Below, piece after piece: positions 273 through 55,327 of a stretch of DNA of 64,000 nucleotides. The notes below the pieces were generated by a model. It searched no databases, had not been told where the DNA came from, and saw only the letters and a list, made by a program, of their open reading frames with translations. Origin of the DNA: Clostridia bacterium. GTDB taxonomy: Bacteria; Bacillota; Clostridia; RUG12999. The DNA is taken from NCBI GenBank assembly GCA_045633565.1, contig JAZQYO010000026.1:915-64914 (forward strand). Direction: 5' to 3'. The position numbers and the translations under genes are program-made. Positions within the stretch are counted from its first letter, which is position 1; each line of letters opens with the position of its first letter.

Positions 273-805
273 ATTCCCCTCCAAAAAAAGGACTTGCTTT
301 TGCAAGTCCTACATCCTGAAAATTGATTTCACAATACCGCAAAGACATTTTGGCATTTTAATAACAACGACCTTCATATCATAACTCCTTTCCACTATTT
401 GCAAAGCAGACTAAACCCTGCCCAGATAAGCAGTATACCAAGCAAGAAAACAAGCCAGGAGGAGGGCATGCAGACAGTTATAATTACGCTCACACCCACT
501 CCTATAATAAGTATCCCCGAAGCTCCCCTGCGTCGTTTCATCTCCTCACCCGTCCTTTGTTATTATATTATTCAGACAACAGGATTTTGGTTAATAATAA
601 AGGTTGTCGAAAATTGGCGAACGAAATAAGGTATAAAAGTATTGCATTTTTTCAATTGTGGTGCTATAATAAAGATGCTAAACCAATTCAATATTTTTTG
701 ACATTGCGACATGTTTTTTTACTTATGGTAAAAATGCATGCTCTATTTCAACATGTCGTTTATGTCATATGAAATTGGTTTAGCAACCGGAGCTATGCGT
801 TTTTC

Positions 806-836
806 GTGCGTGGCTTTATGTCACGCACTTTTTTTA
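806..836 (+). terminator. Rho-independent terminator (GTGCGTG..CACGCAC + T7)
   Basis: Perfect 7-bp GC-rich stem gtgcgtg / cacgcac with 9-nt loop followed by ttttttt on the + strand; lies in a 700-bp region without long ORFs. Confidence 0.5.
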
Positions 837-898: not shown

Positions 899-1012
899 AT
901 GGACAACTATAAAGAAATGTATTTGGAACTTTTTAATGTAATTACCGATACTATAACAAAACTAAAAGAAGCACAGAAAAAAGTTGAAGAAATGTATACA
1001 AATCAAGAATAA
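899..1012 (+). CDS. Small hypothetical protein, 37 aa (MDNYKEMYLELFNVITDTITKLKEAQKKVEEMYTNQE)
   Basis: ATG at 899 preceded by AGGAGACGA RBS-like sequence 5 nt upstream; ends at TAA 1010-1012 just before the A-run/hairpin at 1014-1027. Below the ORF-track size cut-off; coding status unproven. Confidence 0.3.
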   Translation: MDNYKEMYLELFNVITDTITKLKEAQKKVEEMYTNQE

Positions 1013-1019
1013 TAAAAAA

Positions 1020-1317
1020 GCACATTCTCCGGCGGTTGGTCTTAGGGAGAAATCGGTTCCCAAACCATATTTTCAGTTTATACTACATCAAAAAGCATGG
1101 TAATACGCCAGTATTACCATGCTTTTAATCTTTGTATAATTCTAAAAATCTGTATTTGGGAACTGCTTTGCATCACAAAAATCATTATTTTGTGTGCAGA
1201 ATTAGGAAAAACCATGCAAAAATCCTGTCGGATTTTAAATGGTTTTGACAACATTCTGTGCCAAAATATTGGTTTTTTGACGAATAATCCCCAACACCAA
1301 CCGCCGTCTGAATGTGC
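1020..1317 (+). repeat. Dispersed ~277-bp element (core 1030-1306) with perfect 11-bp terminal inverted repeats CGGCGGTTGGT/ACCAACCGCCG, sitting inside the loop of a bidirectional terminator hairpin (GCACATTC ... GAATGTGC flanked by A6 / T5); copy 1 of 2
   Basis: About 85% identical by eye to 54312-54610. Internal perfect hairpin 1095-1122 (GCATGGTAATAC gcca GTATTACCATGC + TTTT). Promoter-like TTGACA and TGtATAAT motifs inside. Ends abut the stop codons of convergent genes. Confidence 0.6.
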
Positions 1318-1325
1318 TTTTTATT

Positions 1326-3540: not shown

Positions 3541-3713
3541 GTCAGCCTGCGAGAACTTTCGCAGGCTGAGATTGCAATAGATAGTATATCATATTTTTTT
3601 CATAATTGCAACAGTTATTCTTTAAACTTGCAACTTTATTTTTTGTGAAATAATTTTTTAGTTGGGATTTCACACAGAAATTGATTTTATGTTCTGAAAG
3701 AAAAAACAATGCT

Positions 3714-4094
3714 TTATTTAGCATTGTTTCTATACTCATTGATTATTTCTATATTTTTCAATAACAATTCCTTTTCTTTGGGTGAAAATGTTTCTGTTAA
3801 TTCTGCAACTTTTTTTACAAAATGATTGTTCCCAGATTTGTTGTTCAAATCTCCAAAAAGCAAACTATCTATTGATATTTCAAGAACATTTGCAATCTTT
3901 ACTAATGTTTCAAGTGAAGGTATTCCTTTTGCTCTTTCTATCTGTCCTATAAAGGTAGTTGATACATCAAGTTTTTCTGCTAATTGTTCCAATGTGTATT
4001 TTTTCTCTTTTCTTTGTTTCCTTATATGTTTCCCTAATAATTCATAGTTCAAAACATTAACACCTACCTTTATTTTAATTGTAACACTATACAC
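3714..4094 (-). CDS. XRE-family helix-turn-helix transcriptional regulator
   Basis: HTH segment YTLEQLAEKLDVSTTFIGQIERAKGIPSLETLVKIANVLEISIDSLL is classic HTH_XRE. The true start may be the internal TTG near 4050 (AAGGTAGGTG RBS) rather than ATG 4094. Divergent from a block of small membrane-protein genes. Confidence 0.75.
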   Translation of the reverse strand: MYSVTIKIKVGVNVLNYELLGKHIRKQRKEKKYTLEQLAEKLDVSTTFIGQIERAKGIPSLETLVKIANVLEISIDSLLFGDLNNKSGNNHFVKKVAELTETFSPKEKELLLKNIEIINEYRNNAK

Positions 4095-4202
4095 TTATCA
4101 TTGACAGAATACAGAATCTTAAAACATTAACTAAAATCTGTATTTTATATTGACAGTTATGTAGTTTTTTGTTATAATGTGTCATAATAGGAGGCGACAA
4201 AC

Positions 4203-4487
4203 TTGAAAAATAAGTCATTTTTTTCACAAATTATGCTATTAGTTATTATATCTTTAATTTCTGTAGTATTGACTGTTGGCATTGCCCTTTTGGTAGGTTC
4301 TTCTAATACAACATTGTTTGATTTTAAAAACCTTAATTTTTCCAATATGATACCTGTTTTAATATTAGGTGGTTTCATCAGTTGTGTTGTTGTTGGTATA
4401 ACGGTTCTTTTTGTTGCTAGGTCAATATTTTATAAAGTTAAAAATTATTTATCAGAAGAAGATAAAAATGGAGGAGACAAAAAATGA
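4203..4487 (+). CDS. Small membrane protein (2 predicted TM helices)
   Basis: TTG start at 4203 with AGGAGG RBS 7 nt upstream; two hydrophobic segments (LLVIISLISVVLTVGIALLV and IPVLILGGFISCVVVGITVLFV). Confidence 0.5.
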   Translation: MKNKSFFSQIMLLVIISLISVVLTVGIALLVGSSNTTLFDFKNLNFSNMIPVLILGGFISCVVVGITVLFVARSIFYKVKNYLSEEDKNGGDKK

Positions 4488-4927
4488 AATGTACTAATCA
4501 CCCAGAAATTGATGCACAAGGAATGTGTGCATACTGTGGCAAACCTTTTTGTAAAGACTGCCTTGTAGAAGTAAAAGGAAGAATGTATTGCAAAAATGAC
4601 CTTGGTAATGTTCTTGATGAAGCAAAACAATCTTCAAGTGGTCAACCAACAATTAACATTACCAATAGCAACGAGAGTGTTAATACCAACACCCATGTTA
4701 ATGGTGGTTTTTACGGTGGTCCTAGGAAGAGTAAAATGGTTGCTTTAATTTTATGTATTATTGGTTTCTTTGGTATTGGCGGTCTTCACAGAATGTATGT
4801 AGGTAAAGTAGGTAGTGGTGTTGTTCATTTCCTTACATATGGCATTTGTGCTATTGGGACAATAATTGACTTAATCTCAATTTTGTCTGGTGGATTTAGA
4901 GATAGTTATGGACAACCTTTGGTATAA
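4484..4927 (+). CDS. Zinc-ribbon plus TM2-domain membrane protein
   Basis: N-terminal CxxC...CxxC (CTNHPEIDAQGMCAYCGKPFCKDC...YCKNDL). C-terminal MVALILCIIGFFGIGGLHRMYVGKVGSGVVHFLTYGICAIG matches the TM2 domain pattern. RBS GGAGGAG; start codon overlaps the upstream stop (ATGA). Confidence 0.65.
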   Translation: MKCTNHPEIDAQGMCAYCGKPFCKDCLVEVKGRMYCKNDLGNVLDEAKQSSSGQPTINITNSNESVNTNTHVNGGFYGGPRKSKMVALILCIIGFFGIGGLHRMYVGKVGSGVVHFLTYGICAIGTIIDLISILSGGFRDSYGQPLV

Positions 4928-5312
4928 AACTAAAAACATTGACAGCAGAAAAAGACATACCTTACATTCTTTGGGTGTAGGGTTTGTCTTTTTTGTTGTA
5001 TTATTCTTATTAACAAAGCTCTTTTCTATATCTTTATGCCCTATAAAAAACATTTTTGGTGCATCTTGCTTTGGTTGTGGTATGACAAGAGGGTTCATAT
5101 CAATCTTAAATCTTGATTTCAAAACTGCATTTGAGTATAATGTTTTATCTATACCTTTATTTGTGAGTATTGCTCTATACTGTATATTCTCTTTAATAGA
5201 TTTTTTTCTTGACAAAAACTATGTATACATTATCGAAAAACAACTTGCTAAAAAATATATGTACTTGATATATATAATAATCTTGATAATGGCAACCATT
5301 TTAAATAATTAG
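4908..5312 (+). CDS. DUF2752-like membrane protein
   Basis: CPIKNIFGASCFGCGMTRGF motif (CP...C.GCG.TR) typical of DUF2752, plus three to four hydrophobic helices. The start is uncertain: the track uses GTG 4890, and the first ATG is at 4908. Confidence 0.55.
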   Translation: MDNLWYKTKNIDSRKRHTLHSLGVGFVFFVVLFLLTKLFSISLCPIKNIFGASCFGCGMTRGFISILNLDFKTAFEYNVLSIPLFVSIALYCIFSLIDFFLDKNYVYIIEKQLAKKYMYLIYIIILIMATILNN

Positions 5313-5470
5313 ATTTAATACTGTATCAAGGATGTTTCTAATAGTACACCAACACTTTTGACCATTATTTACTCTTTTGTGTCTATTAATTTTAGAAAAC
5401 TATGGGCTTTACGGGGCAAGCCCATAGAAAAGCGCGATCAAAAAATCTTCCGAAAAAAACCGACACTTAT

Positions 5471-5500
5471 AAAAAAGGCTCCCTTGTGTAAAGGGAGCTG
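5471..5500 (-). terminator. Terminator hairpin downstream of the DUF559 pseudogene (GCTCCCTTTACACAAGGGAGC + T6 on the minus strand)
   Basis: Seen directly. An inverted copy of the same hairpin, including its loop, occurs at 5899-5920. Confidence 0.55.
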
Positions 5501-5862
5501 TCAACGGAGTTGACTGAGGGATTGTTTAACTGTATTATCAATAAATACACATACTCCCTCAAAGTTTTTGTTTATATCAAGATTTGATATTCTTATAACT
5601 TTTAATCCATATTGTTCTAAAAGCTCTGTTCTTAGTGTATCTTTTTCTATTCCTCTATCATCATAATGCTGAGAACCATCAAGTTCTATGACTAGTTTTG
5701 CTTTGGCACTGTAAAAATCAACAATATATTTTCCTATAACTTTCTGCCTTATAAACCTAACAGGGTATTCCCTTAAGTAATCATACCAAAGGTGTTTTTT
5801 GTCATATTATTTCGAAGTGTTTTTGCAAGTGGTACAATTTCTTTGTTGTGTTTATAGTCCAT
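5501..5862 (-). pseudogene. DUF559 (Vsr-like endonuclease fold) gene disrupted by a frameshift in a poly-A tract
   Basis: Reverse translation gives MDYKHNKEIVPLAKTLRNNMTKNTFGMIT*. In the +1 frame it continues LWYDYLREYPVRFIRQKVIGKYIVDFYSAKAKLVIELDGSQHYDDRGIEKDTLRTELLEQYGLKVIRISNLD..., the DUF559 core. The A6 run at about 5806 would need A7 to fuse the frames. RBS GGAGGGA before ATG 5862. Missed by the ORF track, which only reports pieces of 60 aa or more. Confidence 0.6.
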
Positions 5863-5896
5863 TGCAATCCCTCCGAGTTGCTTCGCAACCCACCTC

Positions 5897-5925
5897 CCTT
5901 TACACAAGGGAGGCTTTTTAATAAT
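5897..5925 (+). terminator. Hairpin CCTCCCTTTACACAAGGGAGG + T6 (plus-strand terminator); inverted copy of the 5478-5499 hairpin
   Basis: Seen directly; lies 24 bp beyond the stop of the SNF2 helicase gene. Confidence 0.5.
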
Positions 5926-5948
5926 CTTTTCTACGAAACATCGAGTTA

Positions 5949-24838: not shown

Positions 24839-24925
24839 GCGGATGTGGCGGAATTGGCAGACGCGCTAGCTTCAGGTGCTAGTGAAAGCAATTTCATGCA
24901 GGTTCAAGTCCTGTCATCCGCACCA
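24839..24925 (+). tRNA. tRNA-Leu (anticodon CAG), class II with long variable arm, CCA encoded
   Basis: Acceptor GCGGATG/CATCCGC, anticodon stem CTAGC/GCTAG with loop TTCAGGT, variable arm TGAAAGCAATTTCATGC, T arm AGGTTCAAGTCCT, 3' ACCA. Confidence 0.9.
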
Positions 24926-25025: not shown

Positions 25026-25049
25026 GCACTTGCATTCTTCTGCAAGTGC
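25026..25049. terminator. Bidirectional terminator hairpin AAAA-GCACTTGC-attcttct-GCAAGTGC-TTTT downstream of the RT gene
   Basis: Its 8-bp stem is identical to the stem that flanks the 277-bp element copy at 54312-54610, making it look like an unoccupied copy of that element's insertion site. Confidence 0.6.
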
Positions 25050-25053
25050 TTTT

Positions 25054-26025
25054 CTAATTTACTTTGTAGTTTTTATCAAATGCATATTTCTTTATCGTCG
25101 GAAATATTGACGAATCAACTTGTTGAGCCGCAACAACTAACCCTCTTAATCTACGTCTACTTTCTGTATCTTCAGGATTCTGTTTTAACTTTTCAAATTC
25201 ATCTTTTATATTTTTTCTCATTGAATTTCTGACGGAGACTTTTCCGGTTTTATTTATAACGGCACCAGTTATAACCTTTGGGTAAAGCTTTGAATAAGAT
25301 ACTTCTTTACCTGCCGATAACTGATACCCATATTTTTTCACAATTAATTTAATTTTAGTCTTGATTCGGTTTGATATTACATTCTTTGACGAAAAAGTAA
25401 CATCATCAACATAAATGGTCATAACCATACCATTATTATCACACAATCGTTGCAATTCGTCAAACATTTTATGATTTACCATATAAGAAAGTATTTGACT
25501 TGTCGGAGAACCGGAAATTAAATGATTTCTTGTTGTAACGCCTTTAACATTTAAGAACTCATTTATTTTATCTATATCTTTAACATTTGCAACATCTATA
25601 TCTACAGTTGATATATTTGTCAGAAACTCTGCTATATCTGATGAGGTTCGTAGCTCATCCTTAAAAAAAGAATAAACTCTTTCGCGTGGAATGCTTGGAA
25701 AGAATGCTGTAAAATCTATTTTGTATACATATTTGTTCCCTTTATGCCAATAAGCATTTTGAGCATATGACTTTCCCTTTACACCCGAAAATACATTGTC
25801 AGGCACTACAATAGCATATAATAATTTTTTTACTCTTGATTGAATTTCTTTTAATATATCGTCTGGTTTTTCTATAATCCTAGGCTTCACAGTTTCATCT
25901 ATGTATGGTTCAATTAACGAGCATACATATTTTTGTTCAAAAATGTGGTTGTCTGATATGTTCAAATAATATTTTAATAATTTTTTAGAATGAAGTTGAA
26001 ACAACTTACAGTTTGTATATATCAA
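25054..26025 (-). CDS. Retron-type reverse transcriptase, 323 aa
   Basis: RT motifs PRIIEKPDDILKEIQSRVKKLL (motif 1), FSGVKGKSYAQNAYWH-GNKYVYKIDFTAFFPSI (retron NAxxH plus the D..FF.S box), LISGSPTSQIL (QG.P.SP-like), IYVDDVTF (YxDD), GYQLSAGKEV, and PKVITGAVIN (retron VTG region). Closely parallels Ec86 RT. TTG start with GAGGTG RBS. Confidence 0.85.
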   Translation of the reverse strand: MIYTNCKLFQLHSKKLLKYYLNISDNHIFEQKYVCSLIEPYIDETVKPRIIEKPDDILKEIQSRVKKLLYAIVVPDNVFSGVKGKSYAQNAYWHKGNKYVYKIDFTAFFPSIPRERVYSFFKDELRTSSDIAEFLTNISTVDIDVANVKDIDKINEFLNVKGVTTRNHLISGSPTSQILSYMVNHKMFDELQRLCDNNGMVMTIYVDDVTFSSKNVISNRIKTKIKLIVKKYGYQLSAGKEVSYSKLYPKVITGAVINKTGKVSVRNSMRKNIKDEFEKLKQNPEDTESRRRLRGLVVAAQQVDSSIFPTIKKYAFDKNYKVN

Positions 26026-52222: not shown

Positions 52223-53737
52223 ATGAATGCGGTAATATATGCACGATATTCTTCGGACAATCAGCGTGAAGAATCTATCGAAGGTCAGCTCAGGGAATGT
52301 AAAGAATTTGCCGAAGCGAATGATATGATTATAGTTGATACTTACATAGACAGAGCGTTATCAGCAAAAACTGACAATCGCCCTGAATTTCAGCGAATGA
52401 TAAAAGAAAGTGCAAAGGGAGCTTTCGAATTAGTTATAGTTTGGAAATTAGACCGCTTTGCCCGTAACCGATATGACTCTGCACATTATAAAGCGGTATT
52501 GCAGAAAAACGGCGTTAAAGTTGTTTCTGCAACAGAGAAAATCTCACAAACTCCCGAAGGCATTTTGCTTGAATCTTTGCTTGAAGGTATGGCAGAATAC
52601 TACTCAGCAGAATTGGCAGAAAAGGTTACACGAGGACTTACCGAAAATGCCTTAAAATGCAAATACAACGGCGGAACCTTGCCAATCGGGTATGCGATTG
52701 ACGAAAATCAATTCTTTGTTATAGATCCTCTTACCGCACCTGCAGTATTGGATGCTTTCAAGCATTATGCAGAAGGTGCAACAATGCAGCAAATTACCGA
52801 TGAATTAAATTTAAGAGGTGTTCGTACTAAAAAGAACACTCGGATTACATTAAATACAGTAACCCGAATGTTACACAACAGAAGATATATTGGCGAATAC
52901 AAATACAGCGATATAACTACTCCAAACGGAATACCTCCGATAGTTCCGGTAGATTTATTTGAAAGGGTACAAGATATGATGAAAGCAAACAAAAAGGCTC
53001 CGGCAAAGCATAAAGCAGAAGATGAATATTTACTTACCACAAAACTTTTTTGCGGTAAATGCAAATGTCTTATGGCAGGCGAAAGCGGTACAAGCCATAC
53101 AAAGCACGTTCATCGCTATTATAAGTGTGTCAGCGTAAAATATCACAGAGGATGCGACAAAAAGACGGTTCGCAAGGAATGGATTGAAGATATTGTAATC
53201 TCTTATTTAATGAAGATAATCTTTGATGATGACCTAATGGACAAATTGGCAGATGCACTTCTTATACATCTGCATAAAGAAAATGACACTCTGCCGATTC
53301 TTCAAAAGCAGTTTGCAGAAACTCAAAAAAGTATTGATAATATGCTTAACGCAATTCAGCAGGGTATTTTTACAACCTCAACCAAAGAACGACTTGAAGC
53401 TCTTGAAAGAGAGAAAAGCGAATTATCCGTACAGATAATGAAAGAAGAATTGAGCAGACCTAATCTTACAAAAGAGCAAATACTCTTTTGGATACACAAA
53501 TTCAGAAAACTCAATCCGAAAAAATTGGAGCATCGCAGAAGACTTATAAATAGTTTTCTCAATTCTGTTTACTTATTCGATGACAAAATTATAATTGATT
53601 GTAACTACAAAGACGGCACAGAAACTATTACTTTCGAGGAAATAGAAAATTCTGCCTTGGGTTCGGATTTAACATCACTCGCTGCACCATATCGAAGCAA
53701 AGTCAGCTTTGCTTCGATTTTTTATGGGAAAACATAG
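52223..53737 (+). CDS. Large serine recombinase (resolvase/invertase catalytic domain plus recombinase and zinc-ribbon domains), 504 aa
   Basis: N-terminus AVIYARYSSDNQREESIEGQLREC...DRFARN with catalytic Ser; C-terminal Cys-rich and coiled-coil domains, as in TnpX/TndX/SpoIVCA-type recombinases. Confidence 0.9.
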   Translation: MNAVIYARYSSDNQREESIEGQLRECKEFAEANDMIIVDTYIDRALSAKTDNRPEFQRMIKESAKGAFELVIVWKLDRFARNRYDSAHYKAVLQKNGVKVVSATEKISQTPEGILLESLLEGMAEYYSAELAEKVTRGLTENALKCKYNGGTLPIGYAIDENQFFVIDPLTAPAVLDAFKHYAEGATMQQITDELNLRGVRTKKNTRITLNTVTRMLHNRRYIGEYKYSDITTPNGIPPIVPVDLFERVQDMMKANKKAPAKHKAEDEYLLTTKLFCGKCKCLMAGESGTSHTKHVHRYYKCVSVKYHRGCDKKTVRKEWIEDIVISYLMKIIFDDDLMDKLADALLIHLHKENDTLPILQKQFAETQKSIDNMLNAIQQGIFTTSTKERLEALEREKSELSVQIMKEELSRPNLTKEQILFWIHKFRKLNPKKLEHRRRLINSFLNSVYLFDDKIIIDCNYKDGTETITFEEIENSALGSDLTSLAAPYRSKVSFASIFYGKT

Positions 53738-54299: not shown

Positions 54300-54311
54300 C
54301 CATCACAAAAA

Positions 54312-54610
54312 GCACTTGCAACGGCGGTTGGTCTTAGGGAGAAATCGGTTTCCAGACCATATTTTTAGTTTATACTTCATCAAAAAGCACCGTAATACGC
54401 CAGTATTACGGTGCTTTTAATCTTTGTCTAATTCTAAAAATCTGATTTTGTAAACTGACATTGCATCATAAAAAACATTATTTTGTGTACAGAGTTAGGA
54501 AAAACCTTGCAGAAATCCTGGTGGATTTTAAAAGGTTTTGACAACACTATGTGCCAAAATTATGCTTTTTGGACGATTAATCCCTAACACCAACCGCCGA
54601 ACGCAAGTGC
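54312..54610 (+). repeat. Copy 2 of the about 277-bp TIR element (core 54322-54599) inside a bidirectional terminator hairpin (GCACTTGC ... GCAAGTGC, A5 / T6 flanks)
   Basis: Same 11-bp TIRs as copy 1. The internal hairpin GCACCGTAATAC gcca GTATTACGGTGC shows compensatory substitutions relative to copy 1. TTGACA-17-TATGCT promoter-like motif near the 3' end. Confidence 0.6.
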
Positions 54611-54622
54611 TTTTTTCTGTAG

Positions 54623-55327
54623 TTACACATTTTCAAATGTTCCGGCGACACAGATTTCTTTTTCTTTTGTCTGCATATGCACATAAAATCCGCCGGGAAT
54701 TTCTTTTGTGCACACCTGGAGCTCATCTCCGAGGTATGCCTGTTTTTTATAGAGCAATTTAACATCGGTAAACTGAAAATCAAAGGGCAGTGCATCCATT
54801 AAAAGCTCTGCGCCTTTCTGATTATTAAGATGCCCGTTTGTGTCAATTTCCTTATTTGCTATTTTCACTGTATACTCAGGCACTTCAATTTCAAACAGGG
54901 GCGCTTTTTTATATTCAAAGAATTCATCTTCAAACTGGAAAAATTCATAAGCGTCAAACATCTCAGCAGGAATTCTACCGATTTTATTTTTCCCGGTATC
55001 AAACAAGAACCAGTTTGCAATTGATTTTGCAACAACTTCTCCATTTTGGCGGATAAAACATCCTCTTGCGGAGGTTGTTCCCTTAAGACTTTTAACCGCA
55101 GTTGCAACTTCGACCGGTTCCCCCGTCTTAACCGGTTTTTCAAACCGGGCATTTATCCCCTGCATCAGCCACGCCAAATTCATATTTTTCAGCGTCAGCA
55201 TATCATATCCGCACCGTGCAGAATCTTTGGTCGAAACATCTTGAATCATATCAAGCACCGAGCTTACCTTAATATTCTCAAAATCTTTATAATCACCGTA
55301 TCTCGTTTCATATTTAAAAGTAAACAT
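54623..55327 (-). CDS. Acyl-ACP thioesterase
   Basis: 234 aa, two hot-dog halves; family-typical NGHLNN motif. Confidence 0.75.
   Translation of the reverse strand: MFTFKYETRYGDYKDFENIKVSSVLDMIQDVSTKDSARCGYDMLTLKNMNLAWLMQGINARFEKPVKTGEPVEVATAVKSLKGTTSARGCFIRQNGEVVAKSIANWFLFDTGKNKIGRIPAEMFDAYEFFQFEDEFFEYKKAPLFEIEVPEYTVKIANKEIDTNGHLNNQKGAELLMDALPFDFQFTDVKLLYKKQAYLGDELQVCTKEIPGGFYVHMQTKEKEICVAGTFENV

Follow-up and report, generated by a model that had tools for sequence, protein, structure and literature searches.

A short non-coding element of Clostridia that has inserted into the loops of terminator hairpins

The short non-coding element described here is present in two copies in a stretch of 64,000 nt (called the window in the following) from a Clostridia bacterium (GTDB RUG12999), which comprises positions 915-64,914 of the forward strand of contig JAZQYO010000026.1 in assembly GCA_045633565.1. 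Copy 1 (277 bp) is preceded by a 37-aa open reading frame (ORF) and followed by the minus-strand gene ybaB, and copy 2 (278 bp) is located between an FMN reductase gene on the left and a minus-strand acyl-ACP thioesterase gene on the right. Both copies open with CGGCGGTTGGT and close with its reverse complement (ACCAACCGCCG at copy 1). The terminal inverted repeats are perfect over 11 bp and extend imperfectly to about 19-20 bp (CGGCGGTTGGTnTTrGGGA). Allowing up to one mismatch, the 11-mer occurs four times in the window, always at the ends of the elements, with 0.44 occurrences expected and none of 100 shuffles reaching four. In addition, no match beyond these four ends was obtained when the window was searched with the 19-mer end and five allowed mismatches. 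Each copy is flanked by the two halves of a terminator hairpin, with an A-run and one arm of the stem before the element and the other arm and a T-run after it (Table 1). A preliminary description made from the letters of the window had proposed two inverted-repeat elements that each divide a terminator hairpin, and the coordinates and sequences agree with this proposal. Its estimate of about 85% identity between the copies has to be replaced by the measured value of 88.5% (BLAST). It also had the stop codons of the minus-strand genes abutting or overlapping the right-hand half of the stem. The stop codons do abut the T-run but do not overlap the stem, being located 8 nt (1326-1328) and 12 nt (54623-54625) past it.

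Orthologous loci without the insert show that the element is mobile and that the terminators existed before the insertion. A look-up of the exact YbaB protein resulted in four loci, three of which (L040, L041, and L042) contain the element and are 98.5-99.6% identical. The fourth locus, L043, is from a related strain, encodes an identical YbaB, has flanks of 92-94% identity, and lacks exactly the window positions 1030-1306. At the locus of copy 1 it contains the uninterrupted hairpin AAAAAAGCACATTC-AGA-GAATGTGCTTTTTTT (core GCACATTC-AGA-GAATGTGC), and the minus strand of the window reads GCACATTC-AGA(element)GA-GAATGTGC. Therefore, the element entered a loop of 3 nt, where GA was duplicated (TC on the plus strand). 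A locus corresponding to that of copy 2 (L130) was reached via thioesterase homologues. It has the same gene order as the window (PfkB, GntR, thioesterase, FMN reductase) at about 84% nucleotide identity, and its convergent genes are only 41 bp apart, the spacer being AAAAAAGCACTTGC-GTT-GCAAGTGCTTTTT (core GCACTTGC-GTT-GCAAGTGC) where the window has copy 2. Compared to L043 and L130, the insertion duplicated 2 bp of the loop at both window loci. Between window 54312-54610 and L130 3206-3246 the stem and its position are the same and the loop is inverted between the arms, reading AAC (reconstructed) in the window and GTT in L130. A further contig, L135, stops 18 nt past the gene and is uninformative on the insertion site, and exact-protein look-ups with the long YbaB start, the thioesterase, the FMN reductase, and P0001 were unsuccessful.

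The comparison of the orthologous intergenic regions of relatives, which the preliminary description had recommended, thus revealed presence/absence differences for copy 1 (L043) as well as for copy 2 (L130). Of the two options it had offered, the miniature inverted-repeat element with terminator loops as its target is the one supported by the two empty orthologues, the 2-bp duplication, and the copies in unrelated terminators of several genomes. The copies do not belong to a single conserved type of orthologous locus, and the empty sites are genuine. However, the hairpin at 25026-25049, which had been taken as the empty site of copy 2, has to be judged differently. It is present and does contain the 8-bp stem of copy 2, but it is situated at a different locus, where it forms the terminator after a reverse-transcriptase gene within a strain-variable segment that comprises about 28.8 kb and is not present in L130. 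It was therefore rejected as empty allele and represents a possible target instead.

Scanning the genome collection with the pattern of the element end resulted in 39 loci, and the metagenome scan in 83 loci, only two of which (L096 and L053) are genuine. Full copies beyond the window were found at seven loci of the genome collection (L001, L003, L016, L021, L023, L027, and L037) and at L096 of the metagenome scan, and shortened forms of 163 bp (L009, 4404-4566), 42 bp (L053, 5948-5989), and 29 bp (L014, 5269-5297). The 163-bp form has lost most of the second of the two long hairpin arms of the element (arm B, see below) and is still located in a terminator loop with a duplication. The 29-bp relic also resides in a terminator loop, and AA and TT are the duplications of the L009 form and the L014 relic. 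The 42-bp form consists of the two terminal repeats and 4 bp between them, and is found between divergent genes without a clear terminator. Partial copies are found at contig ends (L012, L019, and L033), as would fit a repeat that breaks short-read metagenome assemblies. The copy numbers in these assemblies are therefore underestimates. All genuine copies are in metagenome assemblies of Clostridia, Oscillospiraceae, or Eubacteriales, and the names of many isolates or samples suggest the ruminant gut as habitat. Three metagenome-assembled genomes contain three loci each, and the window has two copies within 64 kb. The closest relative of a copy may be located in the same assembly (L003/L027 with 95.6% and L001/L009 with 94.9% identity), a pattern of sequence relationships that fits a spread inside genomes. 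Some of the pattern matches were discarded. The high-GC loci of the genome collection together with L024, L028, and L030 are chance matches, that of L028 being inside a 733-aa ORF, and the matches at L024, L030, and L085 look like chance, being within coding sequence and having no element sequence past the 19-mer. About 20 metagenome loci represent one conserved gene that contains the 19-mer with identical upstream sequence.

Both flanks are available for 13 target sites including the two window copies. If the flanks are joined and one duplication is removed, most sites show a canonical terminator-like hairpin with an A-run, a GC-containing stem, a loop of 3-6 nt, and a T-run. A strict terminator-loop test (energy <= -11.9 kcal/mol, at least 6 pairs across the junction, and a loop of at most 8 nt) is passed by nine of the 13 sites compared to 3.0% of 3000 random positions of the window (binomial p ~1e-11), with L003 and L016 being borderline. 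The dinucleotides on both sides of the element are also identical at nine of the 13 sites, namely TC once, AA four times, TT three times, and TA once. The stems of the targets have no common sequence. The insertions are located past the 3' ends of genes, mainly between convergent genes, and there is no rule among the sites for the orientation of the element relative to transcription.

Three further observations concern the target sites. Seven sites have loops of odd length and a clear duplication, and in all of these except L014 the two duplicated nucleotides adjoin the stem arm at the left end of the element (the arm A end), with the spare loop bases of these six sites on the right. This asymmetry could mean that the two ends do not play the same part in capturing the target, although the sample is too small for certainty. 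The 37-aa ORF in front of copy 1 (MDNYKEMYLELFNVITDTITKLKEAQKKVEEMYTNQE, window 903-1016, plus strand) has a homologous small ORF in front of the L096 copy (692-810, minus strand). The L096 site has another neighbour (pyrR), another stem, and the opposite orientation of the element, and insertion into the terminators of these homologous small genes seems to have taken place independently. Finally, the hairpin CCTCCCTT-TACAC-AAGGGAGG at window 5893-5913, together with about 36 nt on its upstream side, is similar to the sequences flanking the L023 copy (1051-1087 and 1365-1385; 83% identity), whose rebuilt target is CCTCCCT-TACAC-AGGGGAGG. Therefore, this hairpin may be the unoccupied counterpart of the L023 insertion site.

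The 11 full copies can be aligned to a consensus fold in the shape of a Y, which is composed of the stem of the terminal repeats, a long arm A, a junction hairpin of 3 bp, and a long arm B. Standard pairs account for 95.5% of the 1125 cells of the whole fold, and 41 of the 103 pairs have changes on both sides. None of 500 shuffles reaches any of the five measures used, and if the partners are slid by 1-3 columns the pairing falls to 38-47% and the number of double-sided pairs to 3-11. The helix formed by the terminal repeats (helix 1) has no covarying pairs (0 of 18) at 93-94% sequence identity, whereas the mean identity of the interior is 72% and the arms, which are about 70-77% identical, hold all of the covariation. 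Because the repeats are conserved without covariation and the arms covary, the ends seem to be read as sequence while the interior is kept as shape. Judged from this conservation, the terminal repeats are presumably recognised by a protein.

Table 1. Positions of the two element copies, their parts, and the halves of the host terminators in the window
Feature	Position	Strand	Alignment columns	Details and evidence
Left half of host terminator, copy 1	1014-1029			A-run AAAAAA 1014-1019, GCACATTC 1020-1027, TC 1028-1029; sequence, L043 orthologue
Element copy 1, non-coding	1030-1306	+		BLAST and nhmmer against other copies; exact interval missing from L043
Left terminal inverted repeat CGGCGGTTGGTCTTAGGGA, presumed transposase binding site	1030-1048	+		94% mean pairwise identity
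Arm A, long imperfect hairpin	1056-1163		28-136	Helices 3 and 4: 21/40 pairs changed on both sides, 92-98% of cells paired
Arm-A tip, 16-bp hairpin AAAAGCATGGTAATAC-GCCA-GTATTACCATGCTTTT	1091-1126			8/16 pairs covary, 98.3% of cells paired
Junction hairpin, 3 bp, between the arms	1164-1172		137-146	
Arm B, long imperfect hairpin	1173-1280		147-254	Helices 6 and 7: 17/39 pairs changed on both sides, 93-98% paired
Right terminal inverted repeat, reverse complement CGGCGGTTGGTGTTGGGGA	1288-1306	-		
Right half of host terminator, copy 1	1307-1322			TC 1307-1308, T 1309, GAATGTGC 1310-1317, T-run TTTTT 1318-1322
Left half of host terminator, copy 2	54307-54321			A-run AAAAA 54307-54311, GCACTTGC 54312-54319, AA 54320-54321
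Element copy 2	54322-54599	+		Repeats 54322-54340 and 54581-54599; arm-A tip hairpin 54383-54418
Right half of host terminator, copy 2	54600-54616			AA 54600-54601, C 54602, GCAAGTGC 54603-54610, T-run TTTTTT 54611-54616

Within arm A the tip has the appearance of a terminator itself. It has an invariant A-run before and an invariant T-run after it, and a terminator scan detects the plus-strand hairpin in both window copies. Because the reverse complement of the tip ends with TTTTT, it could, as far as can be predicted, act as a terminator in both directions. A perfect internal hairpin of 12 bp that differs between the two copies by compensatory changes had already been pointed out. It is indeed there, comprises 16 bp with its A/T ends, and the argument drawn from the compensatory changes holds and can be extended to the entire interior. 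Folding of single copies compared to shuffles gives z values of -12.5 to -14.3 on both strands. In the strand-neutral set of pairs, 46 G:T are found versus 42 A:C, and because these numbers are balanced there is no clear sign of an RNA of one strand. The plus strand folds somewhat better in eight of the 11 copies, and arm B retains tandem G:U pairs. In the predicted minimum-energy structures, the half-stems of the host terminator pair across the folded insert in all 11 copies on the plus strand and in 10 of the 11 on the minus strand.

The element does not seem to encode anything. None of its open frames is conserved and a protein query across the element found no homologue, so that the ORF at 1097-1384 is spurious, as had been assumed. 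At the gathering threshold the Rfam search gave no match to the element, and a permissive search only weak, generic hairpin matches. The promoter-like boxes TGTATAAT and TTGACA-17-TATGCT, which had been assigned to the two copies, do exist in one copy each but are not conserved across the family, and conserved promoters were therefore dropped. The other option of the preliminary description, a structured RNA or regulatory cassette, is not supported as an independent gene given the lack of a clear strand bias, and a strand-specific RNA gene was also dropped because of the balanced G:T and A:C counts. An all-versus-all comparison of the ORFs around the copies did not reveal a common neighbouring gene, and a Pfam search of 30 ORFs, which include most of those in the strain-variable segment, did not reveal a DDE transposase.

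The element has moved into the loops of terminators and has duplicated 2 bp there, its ends are conserved in sequence, and its arms are conserved in structure. Based on these properties we consider it likely that the element is a non-autonomous DNA transposon, namely a MITE (miniature inverted-repeat transposable element), which is moved in trans, behaves like IS30, and probably preserves the termination of the host genes. It is shorter than 500 bp and non-coding, has terminal inverted repeats, a target duplication confirmed by empty sites, and dispersed copies, all of which are characteristic of MITEs. A palindromic target in which the central 2 bp are duplicated and terminal repeats of 20-30 bp are characteristic of elements mobilised by the IS30 family, and the element agrees with this. 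The likeness to IS30 is a resemblance and not a membership. A transposase supplied in trans would bind the terminal repeats and cut the palindromic terminator at its dyad with a stagger of 2 nt. Because the duplicated dinucleotide is variable, it fits a staggered-cut (DDE-type) enzyme and disfavours a serine recombinase. Mismatched bases at the junctions might be left to host repair, as in the case of IS30, which might account for the four imperfect duplications. Since the element is self-complementary, a transcript entering from either side is expected to fold the insert away and thereby to rejoin the host stem before the U-run, and the arm-A tip would contribute a second terminator-like hairpin, possibly a bidirectional one. 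According to this folding model, termination of the flanking genes would probably be kept despite the insert, and if termination is preserved, terminator loops would represent a near-neutral landing site.

Several points weigh against this interpretation. L021 and L053 are not situated in a convincing terminator, and four of the 13 sites do not have an identical 2-bp duplication (L001 with TT/AA, L021 with AA/TT, L003, and L053). Neither an autonomous element nor a transposase with these repeats was detected in the window, the 39 genome loci, the 83 metagenome loci, viral contigs, plasmids, and phages. The query with the whole element found nothing beyond chance in the plasmid and phage collections, a 32-nt end query gave only two chance matches in the plasmids, and of the two end patterns used with the viral contigs the first gave chance matches and the second none. 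Draft metagenome assemblies usually lose insertion sequences, and the absence of the partner is thus weak evidence. Since no partner was detected, the enzyme and its family are guesses. In addition, the sample is small, with about 14 loci, every one of which is in a draft metagenome assembly. Finally, part of the covariation could result from template-switch correction of quasi-palindromes and not from selection. There are few wobble intermediates, and pairing is equally good on the two strands.

If this last point is taken further, the element would still be a MITE but the compensatory changes would be unselected, arising from intrastrand template switching (quasi-palindrome correction), and the fold would have no function. 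This is unlikely. It would be in agreement with the 21 double-sided compared to zero one-sided-only pairs in helices 3 and 4, and with Watson-Crick pairing on both strands without a clear strand bias. However, 92-98% pairing is found in every arm across copies that are only about 70% identical, and the arm-A tip with its invariant A-run and T-run resembles a terminator that has been retained. Furthermore, the conserved tandem G:U pairs in arm B would have been left uncorrected, and the plus strand folds better in most copies.

It is also conceivable, but quite unlikely, that there is no conventional insertion sequence as parent. In that case an enzyme that recognises shape would target the extruded or single-stranded terminator hairpin and use the Y-fold as substrate, as part of a structure-guided pathway outside the insertion sequence families. 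The pairing on two strands, the missing partner, and the choice of loops independent of sequence would then reflect the mechanism and not selection at the host level.

A single-strand DNA element resembling REPIN/RAYT or IS200/IS605, for which the hairpins would be the HUH substrate and the single-stranded loop the target, is very unlikely. REPINs keep their hairpins by compensatory change, and an interior conserved as structure, a hairpin-loop target without common stem sequence, and pairing kept equally on both strands would suit such an element. However, long terminal repeats with a conserved sequence and a target duplication are not known from IS200/IS605 or REPINs. There is no fixed tetra- or pentanucleotide target beside one end, and a TnpA/RAYT gene was not found near any copy. 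Membership in REPIN/REP-RAYT or IS200/IS605 was thus rejected, also because the flanking bases vary and the copies have no common neighbouring gene.

At sites of large serine recombinases, the flanking repeats typically comprise 2 bp and the terminal repeats about 20 bp, and the target is palindromic, as is the case here. The 2-bp repeat could accordingly be seen as crossover dinucleotide, the terminal repeats as half-sites, and the terminator as an attB-like site. Moreover, a large serine recombinase gene (52223-53737) is located 585 bp from copy 2, and another one 53 bp from the L009 copy. However, serine recombinases require the same dinucleotide in donor and target, e.g. GA in Tn4451/Tn5397, and a family moved by them should therefore keep one dinucleotide. 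Here, the dinucleotide varies between TC, AA, TT, and TA, the last of which is palindromic, and the target stems have no common sequence. The recombinase gene in the window belongs to the strain-variable segment of about 28.8 kb that is inserted beside a tRNA gene, and such a gene is not nearby at 11 of the 13 loci. An origin by serine recombination is therefore hardly probable and was dropped because of the varying dinucleotide.

It is extremely improbable that the element is an immobile structured non-coding RNA gene or a cis-regulatory 3'-UTR (untranslated region) cassette with a covarying outer stem as part of the RNA, because in spite of the very strong fold (z ~ -13), the extensive covariation, and the outer stems that differ among copies but remain complementary, this is largely refuted by the element-free orthologues with their intact short hairpin, and also opposed by the 2-bp duplication, the unrelated neighbours in several genomes, the missing orientation rule, the balanced wobble pairs, the absence of an Rfam match, and the unconserved promoter boxes.

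Two larger regions of the window differ between strains. The segment of about 28.8 kb (24923-53683) is missing from L130, where a terminator and then the FMN reductase gene come directly after the tRNA gene (window 24839-24922). The junctions of the segment repeat GCACCA, which is the 3' end of the tRNA. Its right part resembles an integrative mobilisable element with DUF6076, RepA_N/DUF6017, a MobA/VirD2 relaxase, a ParB-like protein, and the large serine recombinase, whose ORF extends about 54 nt beyond the segment junction. A reverse transcriptase of 323 aa (25054-26025, minus strand; RVT_1, E 1.6e-11) is encoded at the left edge and adjoins the tRNA gene. The remaining segment encodes an FtsH homologue, an SLH-domain protein, several ABC transporters, a TetR regulator, a tyrosine recombinase, and a Ser/Thr kinase. 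The second region (3628-5948, 2.3 kb) is located between the SRP RNA and SNF2 helicase genes, and strain L040/L041, which is 98.5% identical, does not have it. Only small ORFs are found in this region, of 126 aa (3714-4094, minus strand), 147 aa (4484-4927, plus strand), and 140 aa (4890-5312, plus strand), and shorter ones.

Among bacterial mobile elements, the element would be a clear example of a landing site that is set by the shape of a functional signal, here the intrinsic-terminator loop, and not by a sequence. The self-complementary arms and the internal terminator-like hairpin look suited to sparing this signal, which could be regarded as a "safe-haven" strategy. Neighbouring transcripts would gain about 280 nt of stable double-stranded RNA at their 3' ends from such inserts. 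For genome annotation it is of importance that the copies break metagenome assemblies and that covariation screens could mistake them for structured RNA genes. The mobilising transposase could yield an enzyme that recognises the geometry of hairpins or palindromes.

MITEs, mobile elements that enter palindromes, and mobile elements that use terminators as marks are already known, and it is the family and its terminator-loop target that appear to be undescribed. In the literature search we found no description of the sequence family of the element, nor of a MITE inside ordinary terminator loops. MITEs of the Correia/ERIC type are also non-coding and have inverted repeats, and upon transcription they form long hairpins and can influence the ends of transcripts. 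They differ in sequence, hosts, and target sites (TA in the case of Correia), and none has been reported in terminator loops or with a Y fold of two arms. Group IIC introns are mobile and use the stem-loops of intrinsic terminators as landing mark (PMC7923331). However, they are ribozyme retroelements without inverted repeats that insert after the stem-loop, whereas the element inserts within the loop. A group IIC intron was therefore rejected, and no intron RNA family was matched either.

The SPRITE, BOX, and RUP repeats of Streptococcus pneumoniae are, like the element, small AT-rich dispersed repeats with strong predicted folds that are enriched between convergent genes (PMC3049150). SPRITE in particular has a terminator-like hairpin and no known partner insertion sequence, but it is only about 105 bp long, has AAAA/TTTT ends and an 18-bp duplex with a U-rich tract, and neither a duplication nor an empty site has been established for it (PMC3049150). 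Thus, SPRITE resembles a terminator, whereas the element sits inside one. There is no sequence similarity between them, the host lineages are different, and membership was rejected based on length, ends, and fold. IS1397 and ISKpn1 are mobile as well and enter short extragenic palindromes downstream of genes (PMC3184786, PMC1525189). In contrast to the element, they are autonomous members of the IS3 family whose target is the repeated REP sequence family and not ordinary terminators. Their target duplication comprises 3-4 bp.

IS30 has 2-bp repeats, uses the central 2 bp of hot spots that are nearly palindromic as its insertion point, and leaves the repair of mismatches at the junctions to the host (PMC9333248). 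The IS30 family thus shares with the element the insertion at the centre of a near-palindrome and the 2-bp duplication, in addition to having terminal repeats of 20-30 bp (PMC9333248). An IS30-family gene or matching ends were not found in the loci searched. IS30 comprises 1.2 kb, encodes its own transposase, and has hot spots defined by sequence, while the element described here is geneless with its 277 bp. Compared to the hot spots of IS30, the targets of the element have a common shape, consisting of A-run, stem, short loop, and T-run, but no common stem sequence.

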